NCBI GenBank assembly: GCA_963668695.2
Contig: CAXXLQ010000004.1
Span: 2,432,001-2,496,000 of the forward strand
From: Vicinamibacteria bacterium
GTDB lineage: Bacteria > Acidobacteriota > Vicinamibacteria > Marinacidobacterales > Marinacidobacteraceae
DNA: 64,000 nucleotides
Reading direction: 5' to 3'
Part shown: piece by piece, positions 17,328 to 49,922 of the stretch
Layout: each line of letters begins with the position of its first letter
How positions within the stretch are numbered: position 1 is the first letter of the stretch
Made by a program: the position numbers and the translations under genes
The notes under the pieces: generated by a model
Database searches by the model: none
What the model was told of the DNA's origin: nothing
The model's input: only the letters and a program-made list of their open reading frames with translations

Positions 17328-17520
17328 GTGCCGACCTGGAGGTCGGCGGCCAGTTCTCCCGGTGGGGGCCCCTGTCCAGCGGTGCCATCTGCGCGCGCGG
17401 CGGTACGCGGTTTCGGCGCCCTGTCGGGCGACGGTGCCGGTCTGAAGACCGGCGTTCCCTGGCTCCCGCGCAGCGGTGCCGACCTGGAGGTCGGCGGCCA
17501 GTTCTCCCGGTGGGGGCCCC
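17328..17520. repeat. REP-like hairpin cluster; two copies carry the CCAGTTCTCCCGGTGGGGGC 20-mer
   Basis: TGCCGACCTGGAGGTCGGCG x2, each followed by the 20-mer (17350, 17498); plain TGCCGGTCTGAAGACCGGCGTTCCC at 17435. Confidence 0.8.
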
Positions 17521-17543
17521 TTGGTTCCCGGCCGTTCCGACCC

Positions 17544-18797
17544 TCAGGCCATGATGAGGGGTCGCAGGGCCTTCAGCCCGGCCAGCGCCCGCTCCACGTG
17601 CTCCGCCGTGTTGTAGAGGTGCGGCGAGAGGCGGAGGCCGCCCGAAGTCGAGCCCGCGATCCCGTGGTCGTCGTACATCCGGGAGAAGACTTCGGCGCGG
17701 GATTCGGCGGGCACCTCGATGATGACCACGCCCGCCGAGAGCTCGTCTGCCATCGGCGTGACGAGCGGGATCCCGGCTTCCCTGATGCCCTCCTTGAGGC
17801 GGCGGGCCAGGTCGATCATGCGTTTCTCGACCCGGTCCGGGCCGATCTCGCCGTGGAATTCCGCGGTGGTGCCCATCGCCGCGAGACAGGCGTCGTCGCG
17901 CTGCCCCATGGACTCGAATTTCCGGGCGCCGGTGGGATCGGGGTCCGCATCGCCGCCCCAGCCGGGGGCGACGATCGACGGCCACAGACGCGGAATGATC
18001 TCCGCGCGGATCGCGAGCACTCCGCACTCCTTCGGGCCGCAGAACCACTTGTGCGAGCTGCTCGAGAAGGTGTCGGCGCCGATCCCCGGGACGTCCACCG
18101 ACAGTCCGCCGAAGCTCTGGGCGCCATCGACGTGGACGTGGATTCCCCGTTCGTGGGCGGCATCGGCGATCAGGCGTGACGGCATCCGGATGCCCGACAC
18201 GTTGGACACGTGGGTGATCGCGACCACCTTGGTGTTGGCCCCGAACGCCTCGATGAACGGGGCGGCAAGGTCTTCCCCGCTTGCGGGGGCCTTCGGGACC
18301 GACACCCGGCGCACCGAGAACCCGTAGCGGGCGGCGCGCACGTCCCACGCCACGTTGTTCGTGGGGTGGTTCTGGTCCCAGAGGAGGACCTCGTCGCCCT
18401 CCCCGAGCGGGATCCCGGCATTCACGATGTTGTTCGCTTCGCTGGTGTTGCGTACGAGCGCCAACTCGTCGCCCGAGACTCCGAGTTGCGCTGCGACCTG
18501 CTCCCGGGCCATTTCCCGGAGATCCGCGAACTTCCCGCGGTTCTGGAACGAGCAGTCGTGGTCGATGTCCCGGGTCAGCTCGCTGACCCGGTCGCCGACC
18601 GATCTCGGCGACGGACACAGGTTCGCGGCGTTCATCGGCACCCGGTCCTCGTCGAAGGGGAACTCCCGACGCACCATGCGGAACAGCGTTTCGTCGTCGG
18701 CGGCAGCGGCCCGGACGACGGGCAGGAGGGCCGGCGTCGCGGCGGCGGTGCGCAGGAATGCGCGCCGGGTCAGGGCATTGGAGAGTGACGTCGTCAT
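17544..18797 (-). CDS. Tat-exported class V PLP-dependent aminotransferase (isopenicillin-N-epimerase-like)
   Basis: TRRAFL Tat motif; RNTSEAN; HVDGAQ; SSSHKWFCGP; LRLSPHLYN. Confidence 0.9.
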   Translation of the reverse strand: MTTSLSNALTRRAFLRTAAATPALLPVVRAAAADDETLFRMVRREFPFDEDRVPMNAANLCPSPRSVGDRVSELTRDIDHDCSFQNRGKFADLREMAREQVAAQLGVSGDELALVRNTSEANNIVNAGIPLGEGDEVLLWDQNHPTNNVAWDVRAARYGFSVRRVSVPKAPASGEDLAAPFIEAFGANTKVVAITHVSNVSGIRMPSRLIADAAHERGIHVHVDGAQSFGGLSVDVPGIGADTFSSSSHKWFCGPKECGVLAIRAEIIPRLWPSIVAPGWGGDADPDPTGARKFESMGQRDDACLAAMGTTAEFHGEIGPDRVEKRMIDLARRLKEGIREAGIPLVTPMADELSAGVVIIEVPAESRAEVFSRMYDDHGIAGSTSGGLRLSPHLYNTAEHVERALAGLKALRPLIMA

Positions 18798-18822
18798 GGC
18801 GGGCGCCTCCGGATTTCGGAGT

Positions 18823-20010
18823 CTACCGGGTTCCCGGAGCCGCCGCCGTTACCGCCCCTGCGGCCGCGCGGGCGCTGCCCCCGCTGATGATGCGGCGGAA
18901 GAGGATGGGGCAGGTGATCGAGGTGGCGGCCGCGATCATCACCGCGATGGCGCGGTCCTCCCGGTCGAGCAGGCCGAGTTCGAGTCCGACGGTGGCCACC
19001 GCGATGACGAGGCTCAGGCGGGCGGACAACAAGAACCCGGTCGCCGCCGCGGCGCGCAGCGAGAAACCCCAGATCATGAAGAGCAGCGCCGGCACGAACT
19101 TGACGAAGAAGGCCACCGCGATGATGACCCCGGCGCGCGCGAGCACCTCGGGATCGAGCAGCACGGCGACTTCGAAGCGGAGCCCGACGCCGATGAAGAA
19201 GATCGGGATCAGGAAGCCCCAGGAGATTCCGGAGAGTTGGCGGCGGAGTCCTTCGGGCGGATGGAACAGCAGCGCGAAGACTCCTCCCGCGAGGAAGGCC
19301 GCGAGAATCGGCTCCACGTCAAGAACGGTCGAGAGCCCGACGAAAATGAGGAGCAGCGCGAGCGCCCCGCGGATCCCCATCTCGTCGGGATCGTCTTCCC
19401 GGAAGAGTCTCGTTGCCGCGCGCGGGTGCCACCAGAGGAAGAGCTTCATCACGCGGAGCACCAGCACCACCGCGATGAGCAGGACGGGACCGTTGATGAG
19501 TTCGATGCCCCACCCGTCGCGCGCCCAGATGGTGATCTCCGCGACCAGCAGCAACGTGACGAGGTCCGCGATCACCGCGGAAACCAGGATGGACTGCCCC
19601 AGGCTTTCGGCGGTGATCCCCGCGCTTCGCAGGCTGGGGAGGACGAGGGCCGCCGAGGTGGTTGCGAGCAGCGGGGCGTAGAAGACCGGCAGGTCCAGCC
19701 AGACGGTCGCGAGGAACGAAAGCGCGAACGTGCCCGCGAAGACGATGAGCGCCTGACCGATCGGGCCCGCTCCCCCCCGTCTCAGCGCGGGGAAATCGAT
19801 CTCGAAGCCGGCGAGGAACATCAGCATCAGGAGCCCGAGTTCCCCGATCTGGTCCAGCAGCGCGGTCCCTTCGACCAGCCCGAATACGGGGCCGACCAGC
19901 ACCCCGAACAGGATCTCGACGACCACTGCGGGCACCCGCAGCCAGTTGGCCACCGGGGGCAGCAGGAAGGCGGCGATCCCGATGATCACCAGCGCGCCGG
20001 AACCGTCCAT
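18823..20010 (-). CDS. Cation:proton antiporter (CPA2/Kef-type membrane subunit)
   Basis: LMFLAGFEID, TTSAALV, IADL, FLIPIFFIGVG, LLSARLSL. Confidence 0.88.
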   Translation of the reverse strand: MDGSGALVIIGIAAFLLPPVANWLRVPAVVVEILFGVLVGPVFGLVEGTALLDQIGELGLLMLMFLAGFEIDFPALRRGGAGPIGQALIVFAGTFALSFLATVWLDLPVFYAPLLATTSAALVLPSLRSAGITAESLGQSILVSAVIADLVTLLLVAEITIWARDGWGIELINGPVLLIAVVLVLRVMKLFLWWHPRAATRLFREDDPDEMGIRGALALLLIFVGLSTVLDVEPILAAFLAGGVFALLFHPPEGLRRQLSGISWGFLIPIFFIGVGLRFEVAVLLDPEVLARAGVIIAVAFFVKFVPALLFMIWGFSLRAAAATGFLLSARLSLVIAVATVGLELGLLDREDRAIAVMIAAATSITCPILFRRIISGGSARAAAGAVTAAAPGTR

Positions 20011-21299
20011 CAGGGACTTGCTCCCAGCACGGCGGCCGCGGCAAGGGCGAGGGCGCCGGTGGCCCGCACGAGTTCCTCGACCGGGCAGTGCTCGTCCGGC
20101 CGGTGCGCCAACTCGAGGATCCCCGGCCCGTAGGCGACGCAGTCCGGGACTCCCGCGATCCGGGCCACGTGCTTGTGGTCATAGGTGCCGGGGCTCGCTA
20201 CCTCCTCGACCTCGACGCCCAGCGCGCCCCGCACCCCGTAGCGGACGGCCTCGATGGCGAGGGAGCCCGGTGGCGTCGTTACCGGTTCCACGGTGAGCAG
20301 TTCCTCGATCCGGTAACGCCGGCCGGGATCCCGGCCGGCGCAAGCCGCCACCCGGCGGGCTACCTCCTCGCGAACCTCGTCGAGTCCTTCTTCGGGAAGA
20401 AAGCGCCGGTCCACCACGACCTCGGCCCGGTCGGGAACCTGGGGGCTTTCGGTTCCGGCGCCCGCCTGACCTCCCCGGATGCTGTTCACGTTGACGGTCG
20501 CTGCCCGCGCGCCCTCGGGAACCACCGGAAGCGCGGTTCTCCGGGCAGCCAGCTCCGGAACCCATACGGTTCGGATGTCCTCGAGGAGCGGTGCGAGGTG
20601 GGTGATGGCGTTGTGGCCCAGGAACGGCATGCTCCCGTGTGCGACCTCGCCCTCGGAAATGACCCGAAACCAGTACACCCCGCGGTGCCCCACACACACC
20701 CGGCGGGACCCGAAAGGTTCGGGGATGATCACTGCGTCCGTGTCGGGAGCGATGCGGCCGGACTCGGCCAGCCAGGCGACTCCGGCGTGTCCCCCGGTCT
20801 CCTCGTCCACCGTGCCAGAGACCTCGAGGGTGCCGTGGAGCCGGGCGCCCGCCCGCCGGAGCACCTCCGCCGCGAAGAACGCGGCCGCGATGCCCCCCTT
20901 CATGTCGCTCGCCCCGCGTCCCCAAACCGCCCCGTTTCGCACCTCCCCGGAAAAAGGATCCGTGGTCCAGCCGCTTCCGGCGGGGACCACGTCGAGGTGA
21001 CCGTTCAGATGCAGGCGCCGGCCGCCGCTCCCCAGCCGGCCCATGACGTTTTGCCGGGGGTAGCGCTCCGAACCCGGGGGACACGACTCCCGGGGGGGAT
21101 CGTCGAACTCCACCTCGAAACCGGCGCCTGCCAGCCGCTCGCCGAGAAGTGCGGCGCACTCCGGATAGTTCTCCCCGGGAGGGTTCACGGTGGGGACCCG
21201 GATCAACTCGCCGCAGAAGGCGGCGATCTCGTCGCGGGCCGCTTCCGCCTGGCGCAGGATCCTGGCTTCGAGGCCGGAGGCAACCGGGTGGAGCGGCAT
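20010..21299 (-). CDS. M20 metallopeptidase (ArgE/DapE family)
   Basis: NGHLDVVP, GRGASDMKGG, VDEETGG, IPEP, YGPG...AH.PDE. Confidence 0.92.
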   Translation of the reverse strand: MPLHPVASGLEARILRQAEAARDEIAAFCGELIRVPTVNPPGENYPECAALLGERLAGAGFEVEFDDPPRESCPPGSERYPRQNVMGRLGSGGRRLHLNGHLDVVPAGSGWTTDPFSGEVRNGAVWGRGASDMKGGIAAAFFAAEVLRRAGARLHGTLEVSGTVDEETGGHAGVAWLAESGRIAPDTDAVIIPEPFGSRRVCVGHRGVYWFRVISEGEVAHGSMPFLGHNAITHLAPLLEDIRTVWVPELAARRTALPVVPEGARAATVNVNSIRGGQAGAGTESPQVPDRAEVVVDRRFLPEEGLDEVREEVARRVAACAGRDPGRRYRIEELLTVEPVTTPPGSLAIEAVRYGVRGALGVEVEEVASPGTYDHKHVARIAGVPDCVAYGPGILELAHRPDEHCPVEELVRATGALALAAAAVLGASP

Positions 21300-21382
21300 C
21301 GAAACCGAGGATACCGCCCTGCTGCGCCGCTGGCGGAAGCTTGGGGTTGACTTGCCGTAGTTATTTCGATACTATTGGAACT

Positions 21383-21736: not shown

Positions 21737-22074
21737 GACCGGGATCCGGGGGCGGATCGCCCCCCCCGGAGGTGATGCGGATAGACCGGGCATCGGAAGT
21801 CGCCAGCGAGGCCGCCTGTTATCCCGTCTGGCGGCTGCGGGCGCCAAAGGGGCAACGAGGGGACGAACCGCCGGGAAGATGAGACCCCGTGGAACTACCT
21901 GGCGCGAATCCTGATCTGGCGGTCGCATCGCGTCTGGCGGTCCCATCGCATTCGGCGGTCTGTGGACAAAGTGGCATGAGCGCGGAGACCCCCACCGGGA
22001 GAACCCGGTGACTCGCGCGGCTCCGGTTACGGATGGGGGTTGACTTTCTGTTTTAGTTCGATATTATTGGAAAT

Positions 22075-22425
22075 ATGGAAACGCCGCCCGCCTATTCCAC
22101 CGATAACGCCTTGGAGATGCTCTGCGCACTCTCCCAGGAAAGCCGTCTCGATATCTTCCGGTTGCTGGTCAGCAGCGGTCCGGAGGGACTTTCCGCGGGC
22201 GCCATCGCCAGACATTGCAACCTCCCGGCGCCAACCTGCTCGTTCCACCTCAAGGAACTCAAGAAGGGTGGGCTGCTCAGTTGCTGCCGCCACGGGAGGT
22301 CCCAGATCTACACGGCGAACTTCCGGGCGATCCGGGGGCTGCTCGGATACCTGACGGAACACTGCTGTGCCGAGGACGACTGCGAGCACGAGAGTTCGAA
22401 CGGCGCCGCAAACGGGAAACCTTGA
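22075..22425 (+). CDS. arsR: ArsR/SmtB regulator, copy 2
   Basis: Near-identical paralog of 21383..21736 with a similar upstream inverted repeat, TAGTTCGATATTATTGGAAATA. Confidence 0.85.
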   Translation: METPPAYSTDNALEMLCALSQESRLDIFRLLVSSGPEGLSAGAIARHCNLPAPTCSFHLKELKKGGLLSCCRHGRSQIYTANFRAIRGLLGYLTEHCCAEDDCEHESSNGAANGKP

Positions 22426-22539: not shown

Positions 22540-22784
22540 TTAACAGCCGGTGGTGGAACCCGGGTGAGCGCCGAGAGCGGCCAGTCCTCCCGGTGGGGCG
22601 AGGCGCCCGGCTGACAAGGCGCGTGAGGGAGGAGCCCCCACCGGGAGAACTGGCCCGAGTGTATTCCGACCGAAACGCAACGATGAGCGGCGCGCAGCGA
22701 CGCGGTCAACAGCCGGTGGTGGAACCCGCGTGAGCGCCGAGGTTGGCCAGTTCTCCCGGTGGGGGCGAGGCCCAGTTCTCCCGA
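22540..22784. mobile_element. MITE-like composite repeat with 20-mer inserts, truncated by IS21
   Basis: TAACAGCCGGTGGTGGAACCC end; same body as 49994..50178; the last 20-mer is cut at the IS21 TG. Confidence 0.8.
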
Positions 22785-22865
22785 TGTCAGGCGACACCCA
22801 AAACTGGGCCACCTGGCGACATCTAGAACTGGGCCACCCCCAGTGGTCCGGAAGGGGGCCGAGAG

Positions 22866-24164
22866 ATGAGTGGAGGGGCGTGTACTTCCGTTCCGACGCC
22901 GGAGCAGGGCGTCGGGAGGGAAGAGATGTGGACTCCGGAGGACGTTTTGGAGATGCGGCGGCTCCACCGGCTGGGACTGGGGACGCGTCAGATCGCGGCC
23001 CGGCTGGGCTGCTCCCGGACGACAGTTCAGGCATGGCTGCAACGGGGGCGGTGGCGGAAGCCGGCGAGGCGTCCGAGACGTCGAGCGCTCGCGAGCTGGG
23101 AGGAGTGGCTTCGTGACCGGCTGGTGCAGCATGCGGGGAACGCGGACGTGGTTCGCCAGGAACTGGGGGTTTTGGGGGTGCGGGTGAGCCTGCGAACAGT
23201 GGAGCGGGCGGTGGAGCCGTTTCGTCGGGAGTTACGGGCGGCGGTAGTGGCGACGACCCGATTTGAGACGCCGCCGGGCTATCAACTGCAGATTGATTTC
23301 GGCCAGCGGCAGGTATGGATCGGTGGGGAGAAGAGGAAGGTGTCGCTGTTCGTGGCGACCCTGGGGTGTTCGCGTCGGATGCACGTGAGGGTGTTCGTGG
23401 GAGAACGACAGGCGCACTGGTTCGCGGGCCTGGAGAGCACCTTCGAGGAGATCGGGGGTGTCCCGGAGACGGTGTTGCTGGACAACGCCAAGGCGCTGGT
23501 GAAGCACCACAACGCAGCGACGCGGGAAGTGGTGTTCCACCATCGTTTCCTGGCCTTCGCGAAGCACTGGGGGTTCCGGCCGCAAGCCTGCGCTCCGTAT
23601 CGGGCGCGGACGAAGGGGAAGGATGAATCGGGGGTGGGTTATGTGAAGAAGAACGGGATCGCGGGACGGCGGTTCGAGAGCCTGGCGGAACTCGAGGCGC
23701 ATCTGGCCCGGTGGACCCGTGAGGTGGCGGACCGGCGGATCCACGGGACGACCGGGCGGGTTCCGATCGAGCACTTCGCGGAGGAAGAGGCGCAGCGGCT
23801 CCAGCCACTCCCCGCCTACGGACGGTTCGAGCGGGTCCGGGAGCTGACGCGGCGGGTCGCGACGGACTGTTCGGTGGTCGTGGACACCAACGCGTATTCG
23901 GTTCCGTGGCTGTTGATCGGGGAACGGGTTCGGGTTCGGGTGAGCGACACTCAGATGCGCATCCACCACGGCACCGCGGAGGTTGCGGTGCATCCACGGA
24001 ACCGGGGACGCCGGCAGAGGATCACGGACCCGGCGCACTTCGCCGGGGTGGCGGGGGCCGGGGGTCAGGCGGTTCGGAGAACACGGGAACCTGAAGGATC
24101 GCGTTCGGAGAGTCTCCTGCGTCCTCTGGAGGCGTATGCGGAGATCGTGGGAGGCGGATGGTGA
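22866..24164 (+). CDS. istA: IS21 transposase IstA (start may be 22926)
   Basis: RFETPPG.QLQIDFG, LGCSRR, LLDNAK, PYRARTKGKDE..V.YVK. Confidence 0.95.
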   Translation: MSGGACTSVPTPEQGVGREEMWTPEDVLEMRRLHRLGLGTRQIAARLGCSRTTVQAWLQRGRWRKPARRPRRRALASWEEWLRDRLVQHAGNADVVRQELGVLGVRVSLRTVERAVEPFRRELRAAVVATTRFETPPGYQLQIDFGQRQVWIGGEKRKVSLFVATLGCSRRMHVRVFVGERQAHWFAGLESTFEEIGGVPETVLLDNAKALVKHHNAATREVVFHHRFLAFAKHWGFRPQACAPYRARTKGKDESGVGYVKKNGIAGRRFESLAELEAHLARWTREVADRRIHGTTGRVPIEHFAEEEAQRLQPLPAYGRFERVRELTRRVATDCSVVVDTNAYSVPWLLIGERVRVRVSDTQMRIHHGTAEVAVHPRNRGRRQRITDPAHFAGVAGAGGQAVRRTREPEGSRSESLLRPLEAYAEIVGGGW

Positions 24165-24841
24165 GGGGCGACGAAGTGATGGATCCGCTGCCGCAGATGC
24201 TGACGCGCCTGCGTCTCAACGCGATCCGGGATCAGTTGGACACCCTCCTGGACGAGGCGGCGCGCCGCGAGTTGAACCTGCGCGATGCCCTGCGCTTCCT
24301 GTGTGAACGGGAGATCGCGCGCAAGGACGAACGACGGATCACCATGGGAATGAAGCTGGCGAAGTTCCCGGCGATCCGTGACCTGAGCGGTTTCGACTTT
24401 GGGGCGCAGCCGTCGGTAAATGAGGAGCAGATGCGCGACCTGGCGACGGGGCGATTCATCGCACACGGCGAATCGGTGCTCCTGCTCGGTCCCCCGGGAG
24501 TGGGGAAGACCCACTTGGCGGTGGCGATCGGCCGGGGAGCGATCCTGTCGGGTTACACGGTGCTGTTCACCACCGCGGCGGCGCTGGTGGCGAGCTTGGC
24601 GAAGGCCCATCTGACCGGCCGTCTGGAGGAGCAGTTCCTCAACTACACGAAGCCGAAGCTCCTGATCGTGGACGAACTCGGATATCTGCCGCTCGAAGTC
24701 GACGCCGCGCATCTGTTCTTCCAGCTCGTCAGCCGACGCTACGAGCGCGGCGGCTTCCTGGTGACCTCGAACCGGCCGGTGGGAGAGTGGGGGCGGGTCT
24801 TTGGTGACGACGTGGTGGCCATGGAGACCCTGAATCGCTGA
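24158..24841 (+). pseudogene. istB: IstB ATPase, 5' part (interrupted at ~24821)
   Basis: GPPGVGKTHLA, VDELGYLP, TSNRP..EWG.VFGD, then diverges into non-IS sequence. Confidence 0.9.
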
Positions 24842-26451: not shown

Positions 26452-26453
26452 GG

Positions 26454-33404: not shown

Positions 33405-34583
33405 ATGGGTGAAGCGAAGCGGCCCGTCTCTCCCGCGCGAACGCCGCATAGAATCAAAGCCGTTCTGTTCCCTCGCCGAGCCTCGGTTCCTCTGCTGCTC
33501 CTCGCTCTCGGGATCGTTCTTGCTCACCGGGCAAACGCGGGGGTGCCAGAACGCCAACCGGGTGTTCCTTTTTCCCTCGATCCCGGACTCGTTGCGGTTC
33601 CCGGCATCGAGGTCGGCCAGCATGAGCTCGATGGCCTGCCCACCGGCTGCACCGTAGTCCTCGCCCGCGAGGGCGCGGTCGCGGGGGTGGACGTCCGGGG
33701 CTCCGCTCCCGGGACCCGTGAGACCGACCTGCTCGATCCCGAGAACACCGTGGAGCGGGTCCACGCGGTGGTGCTTTCCGGGGGGAGCGCCTTCGGGCTC
33801 GCGGCGGCCGACGGGACAATGCGCTTTCTCGAAGAAGCCGGCATCGGATACCCGGTGGGCCCCTTCCGGATACCCATCGTCCCCGCCGCCATCCTGTTCG
33901 ATCTGGGGGTCCAGGGACCGGGCGCCGTCCGTCCGGGGCCCGACTGCGGCTACCGGGCGGCCGCCGCCGCGGGTGCGCATCCGGTCCGCCGCGGCAACGC
34001 CGGCGCGGGCGCCGGGGCGACCGTCGGGAAGAGCCGGGGCATGGCTCGGGCGATGAAGGGTGGGATCGGCTCGGCCTCGCTGAGCTTTCCGGACGGCCTG
34101 ATCGTGGCGGCGCTCATCGCCGTGAACGCGGTGGGCGACGTGGTGGACCCCGCGGACGGAACGGTGGTGGCGGGCGTGCGCGACGACGACGGGGGCCTCG
34201 CGGATTCGCGCCGTTTACTGCTCGAATCCCTTCCCGGCCGGGGTTTTGGGGCGGACGCGGAAGGCGCCGGTCCGCTTGGCGGAGCGAACACCACCATCGG
34301 GGTGGTGGCCGTCAACGCTCCGCTCACCAAGGCGGAAGCGAACAAGGTGGCCGAGATGGCGCACGACGGTCTGGCGCGGGCCATTTATCCGGTGCACACC
34401 CCCTCCGACGGGGACACGCTGTTCGCGCTCTCCACCGGAAGCGGGCCGGAAGCCCGCGTCGGGAGGATTGGCGCCCTCGCCGCCGAGGCGGTAGCGCGCG
34501 CCGTGCTGGACGCGGTCCGCTCGGCGGAGTCGCTGCCCGGGCTTCCCTCGATCCACGACCTCCCGGCACCGCCGGAGCGGTAA
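33405..34583 (+). CDS. P1/S58 (DmpA-like) peptidase
   Basis: TGCTV, DVRGSAPGTRETDLL, LSGGSAFGL, NTTIGVV, HDGLARAI.P.HT..DGDT.F. Confidence 0.93.
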   Translation: MGEAKRPVSPARTPHRIKAVLFPRRASVPLLLLALGIVLAHRANAGVPERQPGVPFSLDPGLVAVPGIEVGQHELDGLPTGCTVVLAREGAVAGVDVRGSAPGTRETDLLDPENTVERVHAVVLSGGSAFGLAAADGTMRFLEEAGIGYPVGPFRIPIVPAAILFDLGVQGPGAVRPGPDCGYRAAAAAGAHPVRRGNAGAGAGATVGKSRGMARAMKGGIGSASLSFPDGLIVAALIAVNAVGDVVDPADGTVVAGVRDDDGGLADSRRLLLESLPGRGFGADAEGAGPLGGANTTIGVVAVNAPLTKAEANKVAEMAHDGLARAIYPVHTPSDGDTLFALSTGSGPEARVGRIGALAAEAVARAVLDAVRSAESLPGLPSIHDLPAPPER

Positions 34584-35055
34584 CAGTCTGTGGCGAAACC
34601 CAGGCGGCCCAGTTCTCCCGGTGGGGGCTCGGCCGGCGATCCATCCCGGCCAAACAGCCTGTGATGAAACCCGCGCGGCGTTCGGCAGGCGATCCATCCC
34701 GGCTGACCGCGTCGCTTCGCGCCGCTCATCGTTGCGTTTCGGTCGGAATACACCCGGGCCAGTTCTCCCGGTGGGGGCTCCTCCCTCACGCGCCTCGTCA
34801 GCCGGGCCCCCACCGGGAGAACTGGCCCCACCGGGAGAACTGGGCCTCGCCGGCCTCGGCGCTCACGCGGGTTCCACCACCGGCTGTTCACCGCGTCGCT
34901 TCGCGCCGCTCATCGTTGCGCTTCGGTCGAAATACACTCGGGCCAGTTCTCCCGGTGGGGGCTCCTCCCTCGCGCGCCTTGTCAGCCGGGTGCCTCCCCC
35001 CCACCGGGAGAACTGGCGCTCTCGGCGCTCACGCCACCTTGTCCACAGGCTGTTA
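34581..35055. mobile_element. MITE-like composite repeat with six 20-mer inserts
   Basis: Ends TAACAGTCTGTGG ... CCACAGGCTGTTA; the left TAA is the peptidase stop codon. Confidence 0.8.
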
Positions 35056-37660: not shown

Positions 37661-37710
37661 GGGCCCCCACCGGGAGAACTGGCCACCGGTCTCCGGCCGG
37701 CATCGCGCGG
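37661..37710. repeat. Degenerate REP-like hairpin with the 20-mer at its head
   Basis: GCCCCCACCGGGAGAACTGG followed by CCACCGGTCTCCGGCCGGCATCGCG (compare 11687). Confidence 0.65.
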
Positions 37711-39890: not shown

Positions 39891-40326
39891 AACGGGTGTC
39901 ACATCGCGACCGCGGATCTGCTGGCCTTGCTTCGCGGGCTCCTCGGCGCCGCTGTGGCCATTCTCGGTATCCGCGTCACACACCTCCACACCCGTCGGGG
40001 GTGTGAATCTCGCCCGCCTCTGGCGGGCGATCTCGGTTTATGACCGGCGTTCCCTGGCCCTTCCGCGCTACAGGCGGGTCAGCATTACGCGCTTTCGCTG
40101 GGCTGCGCCCAGCGGTGCCGACCAGAGGTCTATACCTTTCCGGGCATCACATTTTCATGGGGCAGACACCCTGCGAACGAATGGCGCCGGACGGGGTGCG
40201 TTGGGGCGCGGCAGGTAGCCGGGAGGCGGTGTCAAGAGGAGGAAGGCGGCGAAGGTCCGGCGTTCCAAGCCGTCCCCGCGCTTTTTCTCGGTCAACGGTG
40301 CGGTCTGGCGGCCCTGCGGGCTGCGG

Positions 40327-40370
40327 TGCCGGTCTGAATGCCCCCACCGGGAGAACCGGCCGGCGATCCC
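40327..40370. repeat. REP-like hairpin with the 20-mer inserted in its loop
   Basis: TGCCGGTCTGAA-TGCCCCCACCGGGAGAACCGG-CCGGCGATCCC versus plain TGCCGGTCTGAA-GA-CCGGCGTTCCC at 17435. Confidence 0.7.
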
Positions 40371-40388
40371 TGGCCTCCGCGCGTCCTC

Positions 40389-43300
40389 TCACACGTAGAG
40401 CAGCACCGACTTCGCTGGCTGGCCGGTGGCTCGCTCCACCGCCCGGGCGTAGAGGCTGACCTGGCGGCGGTAGCGGGCCTCGACCGCCGCGAACTCCGGA
40501 TCATCCGGCGCTCGGGAATCCGTCTTGAAGTCCACCACGGTCCAGGGGCCGCCCGACTCCGGCTGGAATACCAGATCGGCGACGCCCTCCACGAGGAGAG
40601 GACCGTCTCCTCCATCCGCCCGGGTCCCTGCGGGGGCAGGGGCGGCCGCCCCTTCGTCCGACGCTTCGACTTCGAGCGCCGACGCCGTCTCGAATCGGTC
40701 TTGGCTCGGCTGGCTGCCGGCAGCGGGCCCCGCGGCGTTTTCGAAATGGAGCAGCGGCAATTCCCGGTAGCACCTGCCGTGCTCTTCGGCCCGCCGCGCC
40801 TCGGCGAGCAAGGGGTGGCCGAGCGCACCGAGCACCGCCGCTCCTACGGACGTCGAGAGTTCCGCCGGGCGTTCGAGTTCGCGGGACATCCGTTCAACTT
40901 CGCGGGACGCGCGGGCGGCTTCGCGGCGGACCGCCGGTTCATCAGCGTCGAGCGGTATCCGCTCGAGAACCCGGTGGACCAGCTCTCCGAACAAAACGCC
41001 TCGGGGCCGCCCCGGATCCGTCGCGAGCTGGTGGACTTCGGCCGCTCCCCTCCTCCGTCCCAGGCGCCGCCAGCGCGGTCCCGGGCGCCGCCAGCGCGGT
41101 CCCAGAAGCCGCCAGCGCCGTCGCGGAAGCCACCGCGCGGCTCGGCGCGCGTCCTTCGTCGAGGGCGCGCGTCCGGCGGGCCAGAAACGCCGCTTCCGCC
41201 GCCTTCCCTTCCTCCGGCGCGCCGTCGGCCGAGTCCTTCCGAAGCAGTTCCCACAGCGGTTTTCCGCCTCGCGCGTTTCCCGGAGCGCTCGGCTGTCCGG
41301 CTTCGGCCACTCGCGGCGTGATTCCGCCGCGTCCGCGCAGCGGTTTCAGAGCCGCGGCGACGGGGGCGAGCAGGCTGTCCCGGGGGAAGTCCCCTTCGGC
41401 CACCGGCGCCGCGACGAGATCCCGCGCCCGGGTGAGCGAGACGTAGAGCAGTCGGTCCAGCTCCGCGAGATCCTCCGCCTCTTCGGCCGGTGCCCCCTCG
41501 ATCAGGTCCCACGGAACGATGCCCGAGCCGAGATCGCAGGCGTAGAGCCGCCGCTCGGCGTTCACGACCCGGCTCGCCCGCCCGTGCCGCTGAAAGGCTC
41601 CGTCGCAGAGGATCACGACCGGGAACTCCAGTCCCTTTGCGGTGTGGGTGGTCATGATCCGCACCCCGCTCACGTCCTCATCGATGGCGTGCGCCGATCC
41701 GGCGTCCGGGTTCTCCGCTTCGGCGGCAAGCTGTTCCACGAACGCCCGGAAAGAGAGGCCGCCGCCAGCCTCGAAGGCGCGCGCCGCCTCGGCGAGCCGC
41801 CTCAGATTCGAGAGCACCTGATCCGGCGAGTTCCAGAACGCGAAACCGGTTTCCGCGCGGTTCCTGCCGAGGAGCTGTTGCAGCGTCACCGCAATGGGTT
41901 GGTGGGTACGGCGCCGGTGGAGACGGTAGAGGAACGCCAGTCCGTCCCGGATCGCCCGGTCCATCGTTCGGTCCGGCGCTCGGTCCGGCGTTCGGTCCGG
42001 CGTTCGGTCCCCCGGTCCCCCGTTCGGTCCCCCGTTCGTTCCGTCGTCCGGTCGATCGTTCCGCTTCGGGGAGCGGCCTCGTCGTCCAGTTCAAGAAGGC
42101 GCGCCCGGGCAGGCCGGAGCCGGATTTCCGGATGGCGTTCCCGAAAGAGGAACAGGTCCTGGTCGGGAATGGCGAACAGCGGACCCCGGAGGGTCGCGTA
42201 GACGCTCAACTCGTCGTCAGGGAACTCGATGGCGGTGAGAGCCGCGCGCAGGAACGACAGTTCGGCGCTGCCGATGTAGGTCTGGACCGCTGCCAGCGAG
42301 TGCGGGATGCCCAGGTCCCGAAGGGCGTCGGCATAGGGCTGCGGCACCAGTCGTCCATACGTCCGGAAGCGCCGGAACAGCAGACAGATGTCGCTCGGTT
42401 CCACCGGCCGGGTCCCCTCTTTATCGGCTTGGGAGACCCGGAACCCGCTGTCGAGGAGCCCGCCCACGAAGTCCGCCACCGCCTTCGGTTCCTGTTCCTC
42501 GAGCTGGCGGGCATAGGGGGCGTGAGCGAGCGGAATCGCGGCCAGCGGAATGCTCTCCCGGATGGATTCCCGAGAGGGGTGGAGTGGCACGTAGTCCACC
42601 TGCCGGGCGAGTCCCCCGAGTCCCGGCGCCTCCTCGAAGACCGGCTTCATGACCCGGTTCACGAAATCGCAGATGGCGGGAACCGAGCGGAAATTCGTGG
42701 TCAGCCGGATCTCGGCGGCGCCGTTCGCGAGCAGGCGCTCCTTCACCTCGAGGTAGTGGGCCACGTCGGCCCGCCGGAACCGGTAAATGGACTGCTTGGG
42801 ATCCCCTACAGGCAGAGACTTCCCGGGACCGGAATGGCGGCCCGCCAGTCGCCCCCCGGCGGTTCCGGCGCGGTGAGCAGCAGGACGATCTCCGTCTGCA
42901 TCGGGTCGGTGTCCTGGTACTCGTCCACCACGATGTGCCGAAGGCGGCCCCCGAGTTCCTCGCGGACCTCCGCGTGGTCCCGCAGCAGGCCTTGCGTCCG
43001 GAGCAGCAGGTCGTCGAAGTCCAGCATCCCGGCCTTCTGCTTGGCCGCCTCGTAGTCCTCGATCAGCCCTCGAAGGTCCTCGCGAAGCAGCGCCGCCAGG
43101 TCGGCGTTGCTTTCTTGCTGGAATGCGAGCAGGCGGGCCCGGAAAGCGTCGCGCCACTTGCGGGCGTGGCGGAAGCCGGACGGGGTGCGGCCGGAATAGC
43201 CCGGAACCTTGAGTTCCGCGAGGGCCTGTTCCAGCCAGTCGACATCTCTTCCGGAAGAGGCGTCGCGCACCCGGATCTCGCGACCGAGGTCCGCGGCCGC

Positions 43301-44183: not shown

Positions 44184-47100
44184 TCATGGCAGGCTCCGGA
44201 TCTGGACGACTTCGTCGAGGGCGGCAGCGAATCCGGCCCGGGCCTTCGTTCGCGCGTGATTCGCGGGCCGCGGACCGCATACCGGCAGGTAGTCGCAGTA
44301 GTCACACACCCGGTAGGAAACCCCGGGGTTCGGCAGTGCGGGAAAGCGTCCATTGCGGGTCGCCCGGTCGAGGCCGTCGACGAACGCCTCGAAGACGGCC
44401 CGGGATTCCTCGCTGGCGGCGTCCACCACGGTCTCCAGGTAGGTCCCCCGAATGGTCGCGTAGTAGAGCCGGCCGGACGCCGTAGGCGTTCCGGAAAGGG
44501 CCTCGTAGGCGAGCGCGTAGAGGAGCGGCTGCAGGGCGCGCCCACCGAAGAGGATTCGTTGCTGCCGGGTGGTTTCGATCGACGCCCGCCCCGTCTTGTA
44601 GTCGGTGATCTGGATCGCTCCGTCCGCGAGTCGTTCCACCACGTCAATCGAACCGTGGAGCCGGAGCCCGCCGGGAAGCACCGCCGCCTCGGTGCGGCTG
44701 GCCGGGTCGGCAGGCTGCCTCGCCCCCATCCCGAACGTGAGTTCGTTCGCGAGCGGCATGCGTCCGGTAGCCGCGTAGCGCTGCAGGAAGCCCCTCAAAT
44801 CGCCGAGCAGTCCGTCCATCTGATCCTGCCAGATGCGGTCGATGGCGGGGGCTACCCGCTCCCTCACCTCTTCCTCGACCCGCCAGAAGACCGTCTCCAG
44901 CATCGCGAAAGCCTCACTCAGCCGCCCCTCGGCCAGCGGAGCGAGGTTTCGCTCCCGGAATTCGCGACCCAGGTGGAAGAACACGTCGTGCAGAAGCGAA
45001 CCCCGCGTCAACGGATCGAGATGAAGAAGGGCCTCCGGACGCTCGATGGGGCGTAGGCGGACGATGTTCTTGAGGAAGAACTGGTAAGGACACGACGCGT
45101 AAGCCTCGAGGCCGGTCACGGAAAAGGAGCGGTTCCCGGGCCGGTGTCGTTCCAGCGCCGCGAGCGCTTCCGGGTCGGGGTTCAGGAAGCCGTCGGGGGA
45201 CTGCCATTTCCACTGCTGGCGCATGTACTCCTGGCGGAGGGAGCGCGCCACCGCCGGGTCGGAGAGCAGGTAGGCCGCGGTCCCGGCGCCGGCGCCGCCT
45301 GCTTCCGGTCTTCCGAGAGCTCCAGCGACCCGCCCGAGATCGAACTCGCGGCGATCGATCGCGTAGGACGGGTTGCGTGGCGCGCGGATCCCGCGGACTA
45401 CCTGGCTCTCCTTGCCTGCCTGGGCTCGGATTTCGGCGAGGGTGGGGATCTTCCCGAGGCCCGCCCGGAAGGCTTCCGCGAGGTAGTACGACGGAACCTG
45501 GGGGCGGCCTTCGACCAGGTTCAGCGAGGAATAGCTGAGGATGAGTTTCCGGGTGGCCGCTCCCACCGCAATCCGGAGCCGGAGACGCTCGCGCTCGGCG
45601 AGATCGCTGCGCACCGGCAGGTCCGCCGAGATCGCGCCGCGTTGCCGGTCGAGGAGCATGGGGTCTTCGCGGATCACGCGAGGGAACGCCCGCTCGGAAA
45701 GGCCGGGCACCGCCACCACGTCGAAGGTGAGGCCGCGCGCCGCATCGATGGGGCCCACCCACACCCGGCCGTAGCGGTCGCCCCGGGAGCGGGTCACCAC
45801 TTCAGCGAGGCGCCGCGCCAGACTCTCCCGCACCTCGTCGAGGGTGACTTCGTTCACGTCTCGCATCGGGTCCGTCTCGGCGAGGCATTCGAGGACCCCC
45901 TCGGGGTGGAGCAGCGCGGCGCGGGCCAACTCCGCGAGCTGGCGCGTCCATTCGTAAAAGCCCGCGTGGGGGGTGGGGAAAGCGGCCAGCCGATGCAGGA
46001 TGGGCAGGGCCGTCTCGGTCAGCCGGCGAAGATCCCGCCGGCGCCGGCGCACCGCTTCCCGCCTCGATTCATCCGATTCCGCCTCTTCGTCCCGCTGGAG
46101 TTGTCGCTCGAAACGGGCAAGCCGCCCTTCCCAGCGGTCAAGACCCCCGATCACCTCGGAATCCAGGATGAGTCGTTCCCACCTCCGGGGAGCCACAAAA
46201 CCCGTGTTTTCCTCCGCCTCCGTCCCCCGGGCGCCGGCCCCGATGTCTTCCGTCGGACTGGCTTCCGTCGGACTGGCTTCCGTCCGACTGGCCGGCGTCT
46301 CTCCGAGGGAGAGGTATTCCGCGAATCGCGTGGCGGAGAGGCCCTCCCGGGCGCAGTCGAGGAGCACCAGGAAGGCGCGCCCCGCGGGGTGTGGCCGCCG
46401 GGCGCCGGCCTCGAAGAAGGCGGGGATTTCTGCGCGTTCGAATGCTTCCTGGAATGCCGAGGCCTGGTTCGCCGGCTCGGGAAGCAGGACCGCCATCCGG
46501 TCGAAGGGGATCCCGTCGGCCGCCTCGGCCAGGAAGGCGCGCGCGTGCTCGATCGCCTCCGCCGCCGTCCCCGGCGCGGCGACTACCGAGAGGCCCCGGC
46601 GCCCAGTACCCGGATCCGGCCGCCGGGTGGCGAACAGGTGGCGTTGCGCGGAGGCGACGGCATCGTCTTGCGAGGTGTCGCCAAAGTCCCTTTCGGCAGC
46701 TGGTAGCGGTAGGGCTCCCAGCGCCAGCGGCTCCCAGCGGCAGGGCTCCCAGCGGCAGGGTTCCCGGCGCCACGGCTCCCGGCGGCATGGTTCCCGGCGC
46801 CAGGGTTCCCGGCGCCACGGCTCCCGGCGGCATGGTTCCCGGCAGGGGCGGCGTTCCCAGCGGCAGGGCTCCCAGCGGCAGGGCTCCCAGCGCCAGGGCG
46901 GCTTCCTCGGTGTGCCGGTCTCCCTCGGGCAGGGTCAGGAACACCTCGGATGCTGCCGCTGCCAGGGCTGCGGCGAAACGGCGGGAAGCCTGGTCCACGA
47001 GCGGCACGTCCAGGAGCAGCAACGGCAGCCCGACCGGAAGGCCGGCGCCGTTCGTGATCGCTCGTCGAGCGGACTCGAACGTTTCGGCCCGGTCCGCCAG

Positions 47101-47589
47101 CTTCACTTCGGCCAGCGTCTCCAAGTAGGCGCGGTAGAGCCTTCCGAGCGACTCCTCCGCGGCTCCGACCTCGTCAGCGGTGACGCCGGCCAACCGCAGT
47201 TCATCGAACGTCGAGGCAAGCCGGACCGCAAGCCCGGGACCCTGGGCGGCCTCTTCGAAGCGTCCGAGCTCGCCGGCCCGCCGGGCCCGGTGGATGATCC
47301 GGACCACGGCGGCGAGCCGCGCGGCGGGGGTGAGCGTCCTGAGTTCCCGCGCCGCCAGCTCCGGCCGGGCCAACTGCTGCGCGAGGACGAACAGCCCGAA
47401 GCGAAACGCGCCGAAGAGCCCGCCCTGATGGCCTCGCCCCTCCGCCGCCTCATGCACCAGTCGGTCCGCCGCGTGGCGGGACGCTCCCACCACCAGGAAC
47501 GGGTTTCCCGCGCCCAGCCCCTCGAGAAACCGAACGGCCGCCGCGGTCCGCACGGCGGCCCGCGGACTCTTGATGAATCGCCTCTGCAC
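44184..47589 (-). CDS. addB: AddB-like inactive helicase + PD-(D/E)XK nuclease with Fe-S cysteines, frameshift at ~46730
   Basis: FSVTGLE.YASCPYQFF, GSIDVV, DYKTG, LQ..LY, CDYCDYLPVC; N-terminal half in another frame. Confidence 0.8.
46711..46895. repeat. Intragenic 15-bp VNTR in addB (LPLGA/VAPGT/MPPGA units)
   Basis: About 12 units of AGGGCTCCCAGCGGC and variants; one 16-bp unit shifts the frame. Confidence 0.85.
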
Positions 47590-47646
47590 CGCGCCCACTA
47601 TAGAACCGAACCCCGACAAATTCCGTCGTGCCGGGACGTGGGGGTG

Positions 47647-48684
47647 TCAGGCGCGGGGAAGCCCGCGGGTTGCAGCACGAAAGAGCAGCTTGAGGCCGAA
47701 GTCCCAGCGGGCCATTACGCTCGTGAGAACAAGGGCGGCGCCCGCGCTCAGCCGGGACACCCGCACGTTCCGGCCGAGCCGGAAGCTGCGCTCGCTGTGC
47801 ACGCGCCGGAGCGCCAGAACGGCCAATCCGAGCGCCCAGAGCAGATGCCGCCGGATACCGGCTTCCCGAGCCGGAATGAGCAGGATGAATTCGAGGGCGT
47901 GCCCGAGGTGGCGCCGGGTGATCGCCACCAGCCGCGACAGTCCTTCGTCGAAACCGGGGCCGCCGCCCCCGGCCGAGAGATCGCGCAGATCGAAGCCCGC
48001 GGCGTCGAAGACGTCGCGGGGGAGCCAGCAGGAGCCCCTCGCCCAGTCATCCCACACATCCTTGAGGATGTTGGCCATCTGGAGTCCCTGGGCGTGCGAT
48101 GTCGCGAGCGCCAGCAACTCCTCGCGGCGCCGCTCGACTTCCGCGGAGTAATCGCCGAACAGGTCCACGAGCAACTCGCCGACCACCCCGGCGGCGAAAT
48201 AGCAGTAGCGGTCGAGCTGGCGCATGTCCTCGAGGCCGACGGAGGGCGTGTCCTGCTGGAACTCGACCATGCCGTTCGACATGGTCCGGATGCAGCGTTC
48301 GATGGCCGTTCGCTGCCTCGGACGAAACCCTGCCGTCACGCGGACGATGCGAGCCGTGTTGGCCGCGAGGTCGTGCTCCGGCTCCGGGGTCGCCGGCGAC
48401 AGCGCCGCCGAGAGGTCGCGTGCGAAGGATGCGGCGTCGTCCCGGCCGGACACCACCTCGACGAAGCGCTCCCAGAGCGACTGCTTCCGGTGGAGGGAAA
48501 GTTCAGGTTCGTCTTCGATGGTGTCCGCAATCCGGCACAGCAGATAGGCGTTTCCCACCACCTCCCGCAGGCCCTCGGGCAGCACGGGAATCGTGAGCGC
48601 GTAGGTTCGCGAAACGGACAGGAGAATCCTTGTCTGATAGGCGAGATCACCCGCGCTTCCGCTGCGCGACGGATCCTTGTTCAT
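47647..48684 (-). CDS. Squalene/phytoene synthase family (FDFT1-like squalene synthase)
   Basis: VSRTYALTI, YLLCRIADTIED, YCYFAAGVVG, GLQMANILKD...D. Confidence 0.9.
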   Translation of the reverse strand: MNKDPSRSGSAGDLAYQTRILLSVSRTYALTIPVLPEGLREVVGNAYLLCRIADTIEDEPELSLHRKQSLWERFVEVVSGRDDAASFARDLSAALSPATPEPEHDLAANTARIVRVTAGFRPRQRTAIERCIRTMSNGMVEFQQDTPSVGLEDMRQLDRYCYFAAGVVGELLVDLFGDYSAEVERRREELLALATSHAQGLQMANILKDVWDDWARGSCWLPRDVFDAAGFDLRDLSAGGGGPGFDEGLSRLVAITRRHLGHALEFILLIPAREAGIRRHLLWALGLAVLALRRVHSERSFRLGRNVRVSRLSAGAALVLTSVMARWDFGLKLLFRAATRGLPRA

Positions 48685-48706
48685 CGGGAGGCCCCGGGAA
48701 GAGCTG

Positions 48707-49495
48707 TAACAGTCGGTGGACAAAGTGACGTGAGTACCGAGACCGGTGAGGCCCAGTTCTCCCGGTGGGGGCGAGGCGCCCGGCTGACAAGGCGCGCGAG
48801 GGAGGAGCCCCCACCGGGAGAACTGGCCCGAGTGTATTTCGACCGAAGCGCAACGATGAGCGACGCGGTGAACAGCCGGTGGTGGAACCCGCGTGAGCGC
48901 CGAGGCCGGCCAGTTCTCCCGGTGGGGGCGAGGCCCAGTTCTCCCGGTGGGGCCAGTCCTCCCGGTGGGGGCCCGGCTGACAAGGCGCGTGAGAGAGGAG
49001 CCCCCACCGGGAGAACTGGCCCGGGTGTATTTCGACCGAAGCGCAACGATGAGCGGCGCGCAGCGACGCGGTTCAGCCGGGATGGATCGCCGGCCGAGCC
49101 CCCACCGGGAGAACTGGGCCGCGTGGGTTTCATCGCCGGTTGTTTGGCCGGGATGCATCGCCGGTCGGATGCCGCGTGACTTCGTCCACAGGCTGTTCAG
49201 GTTTCGCTCCCTGCCGTCCAGCTCGGGGACGGACTACTAACAGCCTGTGGTGGAACCCGGGTGAGCGCCGAGACCGGCCAGTTCTCCCGGTGGGGGCGAG
49301 GCCCAGTTCTCCCGGTGGGGGTCCGGCTGACAAAGCGCGTGAGGGAGGAGCCCCCACCGGGAGAACCGGCCCGGGTGTATTTCGACCGAAACGCAACGAA
49401 GAACGGAGCGAAGCGGAGTGGTTCAGCCGGGATGGATCGCCGGGCGAGCCCCCACCGGGAGAACTGGGCCGCCTGGGTTTCACCACAGGTTGTTA
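48707..49495. mobile_element. Two MITE-like composites (48707..49197 and 49238..49495) with eleven 20-mer inserts
   Basis: TAACAG(C/T)C(T/G)GTGG ... CCACAGG(C/T)TGTT ends. Confidence 0.8.
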
Positions 49496-49663
49496 AGTCT
49501 GCGTGTCGTCGGAATGCACTTTGGGGGGCAGGCGGTAGGAGATCAGGGGATCGCGCAGGCGCGAGTTGTCCACGAAGGTGTATCGGTCCACTTTCGCCTT
49601 CGCCTCCCACGCCGGAACCAGACCGTCCTCGACGGAAGTCCCGTCGGCCCCGCGACCCTCCTC
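49493..49663 (-). pseudogene. Possible C-terminal remnant of a second MpaB-like oxygenase
   Basis: ...ISYRLPPKVHSDDTQT* resembles VSYKMPDHVKTAQQSPW* of the neighbouring gene; flanked by MITEs. Confidence 0.35.
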
Positions 49664-49922
49664 TAGCAGCCGGTGGATAAAGTGGTGTGAGCGCCGAGAG
49701 CGGCCAGTCCTCCCGGTGGGGGCGAGGCCCAGTTCTCCCGGTGGGGGTCCGGCTGACAAGGCGCGCGAGGGAGGAGCCCCCACCGGGAGAACTGGCCCGA
49801 GTGTATTTCGACCGAAGCGCAACGATAGAGCGACGCGAAACGGAGTGTTTCAGCCGGGATGCATCGCCGGTCGAGCCCCCACCGGGAGAACTGGGCCGCA
49901 TGACTTTGTCCACAGGCTGCTA
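49664..49922. mobile_element. MITE-like element with four 20-mer inserts
   Basis: TAGCAGCCGGTGG ... CCACAGGCTGCTA. Confidence 0.8.

Follow-up and report, generated by a model that had tools for sequence, protein, structure and literature searches.

A 20-nucleotide word foreign to its carriers, inserted at many points of hairpin repeats in one family of marine Acidobacteria

The stretch considered here comprises 64,000 nucleotides of the genome of a Vicinamibacteria bacterium (assembly GCA_963668695.2, contig CAXXLQ010000004.1, positions 2,432,001 to 2,496,000 of the forward strand) and is hereafter termed the window, numbered from its first letter. The genome that holds it (G000) spans 4.1 Mb in four contigs (C1-C4) and is scored 92% complete. 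The subject of this report is a 20-mer, hereafter the word, with the usual reading CCAGTTCTCCCGGTGGGGGC and the invariant core CAGTTCTCCCGGTGGGG. A first-pass annotation, made from the letters of the window, had counted about 30 copies of this oligomer in both orientations, and the count proved sound: at three or fewer mismatches, 29 matches are found across both strands (16 exact, nine with one mismatch and four with three), all of them inside 17350-49894. Shuffled sequence gives an expectation of 0.01, and 29 matches were reached in 0 of 100 shuffles. All copies had been placed between genes, and nearly all within a miniature inverted-repeat transposable element (MITE) or a repetitive extragenic palindromic (REP) hairpin; both carriers are seen here, and the intergenic placement is supported at the loci compared with relatives.

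The main carrier is a modular MITE with TA at both ends and inverted termini of ~25 nt (TAACAGCC...GGCTGTTA), built of two repeated modules, A of 71 bp (one to four copies) and B of 148 bp. Its canonical form is the 185-bp copy at 49994..50178 (+), in which all slots are empty and read GT (slot A), TATT (B-left) and TGAGGCGC (B-right); copies of it are 99-100% identical in the related genomes G001, G004 and G008. A 475-bp modular copy (TA...TA) that follows a stop codon at 34581..35055 (+) contains the word at 34609 in slot A and at 34759 and 34943 in slot B-left, along with an 18-nt tandem on the minus strand (34806/34824) and a further minus-strand copy with a GGGGGG end (34997), while its second module A (34675) is empty. 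Three MITEs lie on the minus strand, of 493 bp at 48707..49199 (seven matches: 48753, 48807, 48910, 48935, 48953, 49000 and 49098), of 258 bp at 49238..49495 (copies 49278, 49303, 49350 and 49448) and of 259 bp at 49664..49922 (copies 49704, 49729, 49776 and 49875). Another, at 22541..22790 (+), holds copies at 22581 (three mismatches), 22634 (-) and 22747, and is truncated by an IS21-type insertion sequence that lies within the word, leaving a truncated 20-mer at the junction (22772-22790). This element runs from 22791 at least to the end of istB at 24841 (+), with istA at 22866-24164 and istB at 24158-24841; its domains are rve and Mu-transpos_C_2, along with IstB_IS21 at an E value of 2e-62. 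A degenerate copy with three mismatches occupies a broken MITE end at 21988..22007 (-). Elsewhere in the genome, a satellite of 10-nt units (GGTAATCCCC) directly adjoins a MITE at G000:C4:353150-353230.

The second carrier is a true REP hairpin family, exemplified by GCCGGTC-TGAA-GACCGGC, of which a plain, empty member stands at 17435..17453 (-8.6 kcal/mol, z -2.2). The word is located just 3' of such a hairpin at 17350..17369 (+), between GGTCGGCGG and CCC, and this copy is missing from the orthologous REP of G001. The copy that follows a REP hairpin at 17498..17517 (+) is polymorphic among orthologues, and the one beside a hairpin at 37663..37682 (-) has counterparts at the orthologous sites of both G001 and G004. 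At 40340..40359 (-), the word, with one mismatch, stands in place of part of the 3' arm of the hairpin. The REP contexts reported in the first-pass annotation were thus borne out, but not the position in the hairpin loop, as the word is found in a stem arm (GCCGG-T-C) or just after the hairpin.

Across G000, 1497 copies are found at one or fewer mismatches and 1601 at two or fewer, 962 of these being exact, and a reversed-pattern control gave 0 matches in the same genome. When all copies are tabulated, positions 0-17 each show a single base at 98-100%, with the exception of position 5 (T 89%, C 11%), and positions 18-19 stand at 87-88%. Outside the word the sole conspicuous position is -2 (G, 92%), and the flanks are not invariant. 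The sequence is asymmetric and has neither terminal inverted repeats nor a regular target-site duplication, the duplicated GAGGC flank being found at one arrangement only (48748-48777), where the orthologue in G004 has a single GAGGC and no oligomer. The word is not itself a palindromic hairpin (-1.9 kcal/mol, z -0.10, with equally stable folds in 83 of 200 shuffles). Two copies in inverted orientation do fold as a long hairpin (-36.9 kcal/mol, z -5.4), and 298 adjacent plus-minus pairs lie within 400 nt of each other, 148 of them at 47 nt and 63 at 54 nt. Plus and minus copies are equal in each 200-kb bin; the word therefore lacks replichore polarity, and a polar host motif is ruled out by this lack of strand bias. 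By 11-mer frequency, with contig C1 excluded, repeat DNA lies on both sides of 1452 of 1550 copies. Only six have "unique" DNA on both sides, all of which are diverged MITE or REP copies, and none of the 1550 lies in plainly unique DNA.

Assembly or adapter artefacts do not account for the word, since it is present in exact form in 22 of 41 related genomes and in contigs of public sequencing runs from separate studies. The loose ends of these contigs bear the word, and the copies at 37663 and 40340 are each spanned by a single contig: one from run X10 extends to 37686, past the first, and one from an RNA library covers 40257-40523 without gaps across the second. A further X10 contig over 40309-41075 shows 22 gap positions. 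These public-run (Logan) contigs stop at the MITE borders and carry no information on filled and empty states. Several sources of the word were considered and rejected. The best local score against 58 tRNA and tmRNA calls by aragorn was 12 of 20, to an odd 98-nt call, and viral contigs contained 0 exact matches. No Rfam family matched in the window at its gathering score, and literature searches returned no paper with the word, its complement or two 14-mers, and none that mentions "Marinacidobacterium".

Grouping the copies on their 12-nt flanks gave 190 flank pairs, of which few are dominant. The word lies at 13 or more distinct points of the TA-bounded MITE and the REP hairpins taken together. 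The paired empty and filled sites that the first-pass annotation had recognised in the window recur throughout G000: slot A (GCGGC-GT-TCGG) is empty 265 times and filled 304 times, and slot B-left (CCCGG-TATT-CCTCC) is empty 285 times and filled 297 times in the form G+word+T. Slot B-right (CCGG-N-GAGGC-GC-CCGG) is empty in 195 cases, the remainder having one to three copies at two adjoining points. Slot D (GCG-NN-GCGG) is empty 183 times and filled 44 times, and the REP arm (GCCGG-T-CTTCAG) is empty 129 times and filled 51 times with 19-20 nt. Rarer slots with empty partners include the other REP arm (CCGG-T-CGGC), the REP tail (GGCGG-T-CC) and others, and in the loop of the module-A hairpin (GCGATCC-AT-CCCGG) two filled sites compare with 282 empty ones. 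In a general search, 294 of 474 exact flank classes, equivalent to 757 of 1133 sites, had an empty paralogue; this search undercounts B-left owing to its extra G and T. In all slots with empty partners the word takes the place of one to four bases, mostly including a T. Its ends are identical to within 1-2 nt across about 20 slots, and to its left lie CGG, GGC or GCG, which also flank every possible donor.

The empty forms are intact hairpins, namely GGAATAC-ACCCG-GTATTCC at B-left, the 7-bp stem of the REP and the ~10-bp stem of module A, and the word disrupts each of them. The direction of change is thus insertion. The same follows from the TATT of B-left, which is not derivable from the word, and from the word, which is unlike the empty MITE (local score 6, reached by 997 of 1000 shuffles), such that its derivation from the MITE is rejected. 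The word, a discrete module foreign to its carriers, is an insertion unit of one family of marine Acidobacteria and has entered GC-rich hairpin DNA at about 20 points across that family with the loss of a few target bases. The hairpins entered are the modules of the MITE, the REP hairpins and rare one-off hairpins. The proposal that the oligomer is an entity of its own within two unrelated hairpin families is accordingly upheld by its many points of entry, by the matching empty sites and by orthologous differences that run in both directions.

Each of the 15 other genomes of the genus contains the word, with 11 to 807 copies at two or fewer mismatches, and so do six of nine genomes from other genera of the family, of which two complete genomes have 363 and 71 copies and two others one or two. 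The exact word was found in 0 of 16 genomes from two neighbouring families. Within the genus, genomes of one to four contigs range from 16 to 1601 copies. Among the matches listed from species collections are metagenome-assembled genomes of "Candidatus Marinacidobacterium", Vicinamibacteria and Acidobacteria; also among those listed, one exact match falls outside the Acidobacteria labels, on a 6-kb contig binned as Gammaproteobacteria, which may be mis-binned or transferred. A source locus in a single-copy genome was sought in G020, whose lone exact copy sits in an ordinary MITE slot. Twenty loci were inspected in each of G018 and G019, which belong to other genera. In G019 the homologous MITE bears the word mainly in the hairpin-loop slot, which is nearly always empty in G000, with a further site at GAGCGGT-..-GGCGCC. 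In G018 the word occupies still other points of the MITE and a different REP family, and a full copy is often nested in another at the word's own CCGG-T-G (CCAGTTCTCCCGG-word-GGGG(G)C), an arrangement of which G000 has none. As the main slots differ between genera, no single ancestral composite can account for them.

Orthologous sites show the same polymorphism at closer range. The REP tail at 17498 reads GGCGG-word-CCCTTGG in G000 and G001 and GGCGG-T-CCTTGG in G004, G008 and G010. A one-off hairpin, GGCGCG-AAT-CGCGC in G004, has its AAT replaced by G+word in G000 and G001, and one orthologous REP was entered at two different points, with the word oriented one way in G000 and the other way in G004. 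These comparisons were extended by a survey of syntenic DNA, 400 kb each from G004 and G001. The span compared with G004 holds 186 G000 copies, 145 with no orthologous alignment and 15 with one aligned flank; the 26 with both flanks aligned comprise 12 shared copies, 10 clean cases of presence in G000 only and four partial cases. The 91 G004 copies seen from the other side comprise 57 unaligned, nine with one flank, 16 shared, seven clean and two partial. Against G001, the 122 G000 copies divide into 92 unaligned, 13 with one flank, 13 shared, three clean and one partial, and the 48 G001 copies into 26 unaligned, seven with one flank, 12 shared, two clean and one partial. These presence and absence events are not confidently polarised. 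Similarity between the species varies in mosaic fashion, G001 having one block of 97% identity and another of 83%. The MITE at 48707 (493 bp and seven matches in G000) corresponds in G004 to a canonical copy of ~190 bp without the 20-mer, and G001 and G008 have no MITE there. At 34581, G004 has a ~190-bp MITE with a different interior, compared with 475 bp in G000, and no MITE is found in G008, G010 or G014. The G001 orthologue of this latter MITE contains a tandem array of more than 1 kb, of ~118-bp units with REPs inside them, and also has a transposase-like insertion of ~1.5 kb. The canonical empty MITE, at 99-100% identity between species whose genes are 83-97% identical, suggests either recent spread among co-occurring species or a strongly conserved master copy.

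The first-pass annotation had described the oligomer as repeatedly inserted, but the number of copies is not the number of insertions: the bulk of the ~1600 copies arises from amplification of the carriers and recombination. The routes comprise transposition of the MITE, tandem duplication of its 71- and 148-bp modules, slippage of 18- and 25-nt units, and recombination or gene conversion that uses the word as homology. The ends of the word vary by slot, with a GG end in 55 of 57 slot D copies and, among 205 copies at the second B-right point (B-right-2), a T-ending form in 67 and a T5C form in 77, while slots A and B-left contain nearly pure consensus. Slot-specific variants of this kind fit one or few founding events per slot. 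Copies recur at spacings of 71, 98 and 148 nt and at a 25-nt period with GAGGC, and the head-to-tail doublets noticed in the window are real, with an 18-nt period, an 18-nt unit standing immediately before 139 full copies; these spacings and periods indicate duplication of modules and units. 

Contigs C1-C3 provide a view over a shorter time, as they are alternative haplotypes of parts of C4 (C4:310000-421000, 3408000-3414000 and 3505000-3538000), to which C1 is about 99.3-99.7%, C2 80-92% and C3 97.6-99.7% identical. They are thereby ruled out as plasmids that might carry an enzyme, and they probably explain the 9% contamination figure of G000. No new slot was found among 62 copies aligned between haplotypes. 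The differences seen are two changes of an 18-nt unit and one of ~210 nt between two direct copies (slot A and B-left) in contigs 99.5% identical. The latter matches a chimeric flank pair, the left of slot A with the right of B-left, that is borne by nine copies genome-wide. Whether B-left is filled or empty shows no linkage to any flanking variant (r2 ≤ 0.11), and certain of these variants are mutually linked at r2 0.6-0.9; slot state is therefore shuffled by gene conversion or by repeated filling and loss, and not inherited clonally. As a separate observation, the positions 20 nt left and 9 nt right of B-left (the window 50073, 50113 region) co-vary as C-G or T-A (r2 0.69, 563 copies), as might be seen in the conserved stem of a folded element.

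The age of the copies was approached through inserts anchored by their flanks only. Of those in slot A, 280 of 292 match the consensus exactly, as do 267 of 291 in B-left, in comparison to 14 of 69 inserts in REP arms, where 12% of bases per site are non-consensus. Rare variants occur at 0.0015-0.0030 per site in MITE inserts, near the 0.002-0.004 of their flanks. Because empty MITEs are themselves 99-100% alike across species, the identity of the MITE inserts reflects youth and not constraint. The MITE-borne copies are accordingly young and the REP-borne copies old and decaying, with no sign of selection on the word itself.

A longer relative of the word was also found. This element is non-coding and measures about 227 nt or more, and its signature is matched at about 28 places in G000 (e.g., C4:2157839-2158064). 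It opens with 16 nt from the start of the reverse-complemented word and closes with ...CAGCAACTGG, the last 4-6 nt of the word. It occupies the slots of the word, namely both REP arms, B-left and, once, exactly slot A, and contains a hairpin near its start (TCATGATCGGG...CCCGTCATGA) along with an internal REP. Four loci gave no Rfam match at E ≤ 1. Of the 15 other genomes of the genus, 11 have the signature, in comparison to 0 of 12 genomes searched from other genera, word-rich ones included. This confinement to the genus rules the element out as the parent of the word and indicates that it is derived from it, either as cargo between the ends of the word or as something that inserts into the word.

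The first-pass annotation had named HUH/RAYT-type joining (RAYT, REP-associated tyrosine transposase) or reverse transcription as possible agents. Neither finds a candidate in G000, in which no Y1/RAYT transposase (PF01797) and no reverse transcriptase (RVT_1, PF00078) were found. Y1 genes are present in 15 of 28 genomes of the family and in 13 of the 15 other genomes of the genus, but were not found in G000, G004, G018 and G019, all of which are rich in the word. The flanks of such genes had been suggested as a source locus, yet in relatives plain REP hairpins lie near three of four Y1 loci and the word near only one, and the REPs in question belong to another, truly palindromic family. By genus, Y1 is present in three of four word-rich genera and in none of three with two or fewer copies, in a small sample of non-independent kin. 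The IS21-type element at 22791 is the sole element found to interrupt the word. A single IS110-type gene (Transposase_20; G000:C4:482100-483850) is inserted in a REP hairpin and not in the word, and short fragments of its left end (TATACCCTT...) recur at REPs in G000 and G004.

How the founding insertions arose is thus a matter of weighing several readings, among which templated patching at hairpin lesions, and not the action of a resident transposase, is tentatively favoured, at somewhat less than an even chance. An existing copy of the word would serve as donor and be copied into a lesion or a stalled fork at a hairpin, the copy-choice patch being primed by 2-3 nt of left microhomology (CGG/GGC); the founding copies would then be amplified and shuffled with, and through, their carriers. 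This reading is favoured on account of the loss of target bases, the wobble of the 3' end from slot to slot, the donor-like left flanks and the lack of a resident enzyme, and the absence of a fold, of terminal inverted repeats and of a regular target duplication is likewise counted for patching over a transposase. Several points weigh against it. Copy-choice tracts normally vary, whereas the ends of the word are constant to 1-2 nt in about 20 slots, as would better fit a unit with defined ends. The ~227-nt element, which has the ends of the word and lies in the same slots, resembles cargo between defined termini, and a REP-specific variant (G at position 0 and a CC end; 27 copies) is found in two different REP slots, as would be expected if a replicating unit had given rise to a lineage. 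That no enzyme was found concerns two Pfam families in a genome scored 92% complete, and no de novo event was caught, such that founding direction and mechanism are drawn from comparison. Templated patching is accordingly only slightly favoured, and a dedicated enzyme is nearly as likely. Under the latter reading, which is possible though doubtful, the word would be a true micro-transposon of 17-20 bases, the smallest known, whose ends are both recognised by an enzyme acting in trans that inserts the word, or cargo such as the 227-nt element, into single-stranded DNA at T-containing positions of GC hairpins and removes one or two bases. The constant ends, the long element with the same termini and the variant lineage common to two REP slots all speak for it, as do an orientation fixed relative to CGG-T-C in both REP arms, the nested copy at CCGG-T-G and, with the caveat of few and related genera, the co-occurrence with Y1 in three of four word-rich genera and none of the three poor ones. 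However, the word-rich genomes without Y1, the plain REPs at Y1 loci (with the word at one of four), the lack of RVT_1 in G000 and the position of the IS110-type gene in a REP are difficult to reconcile with such an enzyme, as are the lack of a hairpin in the word and of any new slot among the 62 copies compared between near-identical haplotypes. The deletion of target bases also counts against it, and we know of no HUH, DDE or serine transposase that does this.

The remaining readings assign the word a different role. Were it mainly a recombination site similar to dRS3 of Neisseria, a site-specific recombinase or plain homology would exchange, delete and duplicate DNA between copies, and the apparent insertions would be side products. 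The chimeric slot A/B-left flanks in nine copies, the deletion between direct copies that distinguishes two haplotypes, and orthologous MITEs of 190 versus 475-495 bp that differ in module number are all as this would have it, as is the unlinked slot state (r2 ≤ 0.11) amid flanking variants that are in part linked (0.6-0.9). The GAGGC-flanked copy at 48753 is the product expected of a crossover inside the word between the first and second B-right points (B-right-1 and B-right-2), and arrays in Neisseria behave alike (PMC1797815). However, the first entry of the word into an empty slot, REP arm or one-off hairpin cannot come from exchange between existing copies. Typical recombinase core sites are inverted repeats, which the word is not, and no phage or insertion sequence was seen to integrate specifically in the word, the IS21-type element at 22791 being the only interruption found. 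This reading is unlikely. Less probable by far is a site selected by the host, whether for binding of a nucleoid or regulatory protein or as a DNA uptake sequence, with repeats as mere carriers. An exact sequence common to several genera and near-invariant MITE inserts (280/292 and 267/291) might be so explained, and a spreading protein-binding site had been offered as an alternative by the first-pass annotation, but the decay of REP-borne copies (14/69 identical, 12% non-consensus per site) weakens it. Copy numbers of 16 to 1601 among the one- to four-contig genomes of the genus, the lack of strand or replichore bias, and repeats on both sides of 1452 of 1550 copies, with none plainly in unique DNA, are no easier to fit, and the identity of MITE inserts is matched by that of empty MITEs and so reflects youth. 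Least credible of all is the derivation of every filled site from one ancestral composite repeat, with the empty sites as deletions. In its favour, the main slots show filled and empty forms in roughly equal numbers, and deletions between copies are seen. Against it, the empty forms are intact hairpins that the word disrupts (GGAATAC-ACCCG-GTATTCC; the 7-bp REP stem), the word offers no source for TATT, and it is unlike the MITE. The main slot also varies by genus, the word resides in unrelated REP families and a one-off hairpin, and the canonical MITE common to species at 99-100% is the empty one; the single-composite scenario is contradicted by these data.

By architecture and dynamics, the closest described system is the mosaic of neisserial intergenic mosaic elements (NIMEs) and dRS3. 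The ~20-bp dRS3 occurs in hundreds of copies interspersed among short intergenic repeat modules of many families, has a variable centre between 6-bp terminal inverted repeats, and serves as an integration site for a filamentous phage (PMC1797815). Syntenic NIME arrays differ in unit number between strains, dRS3 is thought to be recombinational, and the arrays were stated, as of 2007, to be unseen outside Neisseria (PMC1797815). The word is similarly a ~20-bp sequence that bounds diverse repeat modules in arrays variable at syntenic sites. Unlike dRS3, it is asymmetric and invariant, lies inside a TA-bounded MITE and REP stems, replaces target bases, and has no integrating phage or insertion sequence found for it. 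With REPs and their paired form, REPINs, it shares a short, extragenic and very abundant nature and frequent inverted pairs that fold as long hairpins; unlike the REP/RAYT system, it is non-palindromic (z -0.1) and a guest inside REPs, in a genome with no RAYT found. The bacterial interspersed mosaic elements (BIMEs) of Escherichia coli and the BOX elements of Streptococcus pneumoniae are modular mosaic repeats, and the carriers described here are likewise composed of small modules of variable number and order (module A one to four times, B repeated). To our knowledge, no single oligomer has been described that enters different BIME or BOX modules and an unrelated repeat family as well. Templated insertions at repaired breaks are short copied tracts that replace a few junction bases and normally vary in length and source. 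The junction wobble of 1-2 nt and the donor-like left flank of the word are alike in kind, but the same 17-20 nt with the same ends recur here. Similarities to palindrome-associated transposable elements (PATEs) derived from IS200/IS605 include the lack of terminal inverted repeats or target duplication, the asymmetric ends and the link to hairpin DNA, along with a ~227-nt relative with hairpins near its ends; in contrast, the word is without the subterminal hairpins needed by the enzymes of PATEs, target bases are lost, and G000 has no Y1 detected. A MITE differs from the word in its terminal inverted repeats and target duplication, and is here the carrier itself, with TA at both ends. DNA uptake sequences, Chi and the FtsK-orienting polar sequences (KOPS) differ from a word that lies in repeat DNA, varies unstably in number among congeners and lacks polarity, and retrons and diversity-generating retroelements are set apart by the absence of an RVT_1 match in G000, at its completeness of 92%.

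If the founding events were enzymatic, they would represent a new way to write a defined short sequence into structured DNA, and the mobile unit would be the smallest yet described. On the ordinary reading too, one 20-base word drives very fast intergenic remodelling, as orthologous repeats measure 190 versus 495 bp in species about 90% identical, and changes occur even between haplotypes of 99.5% identity. The arrangement also constitutes a second, independent case of an architecture of the NIME type, which was stated in 2007 to be unseen outside Neisseria (PMC1797815), and loci with the word and its MITE explain the breaks of short-read assemblies at every such locus in these symbionts. Among the neighbouring genes of the window, that of a small ArsR/HTH_20-type regulator (22075-22425) lies between two repeat-filled gaps.

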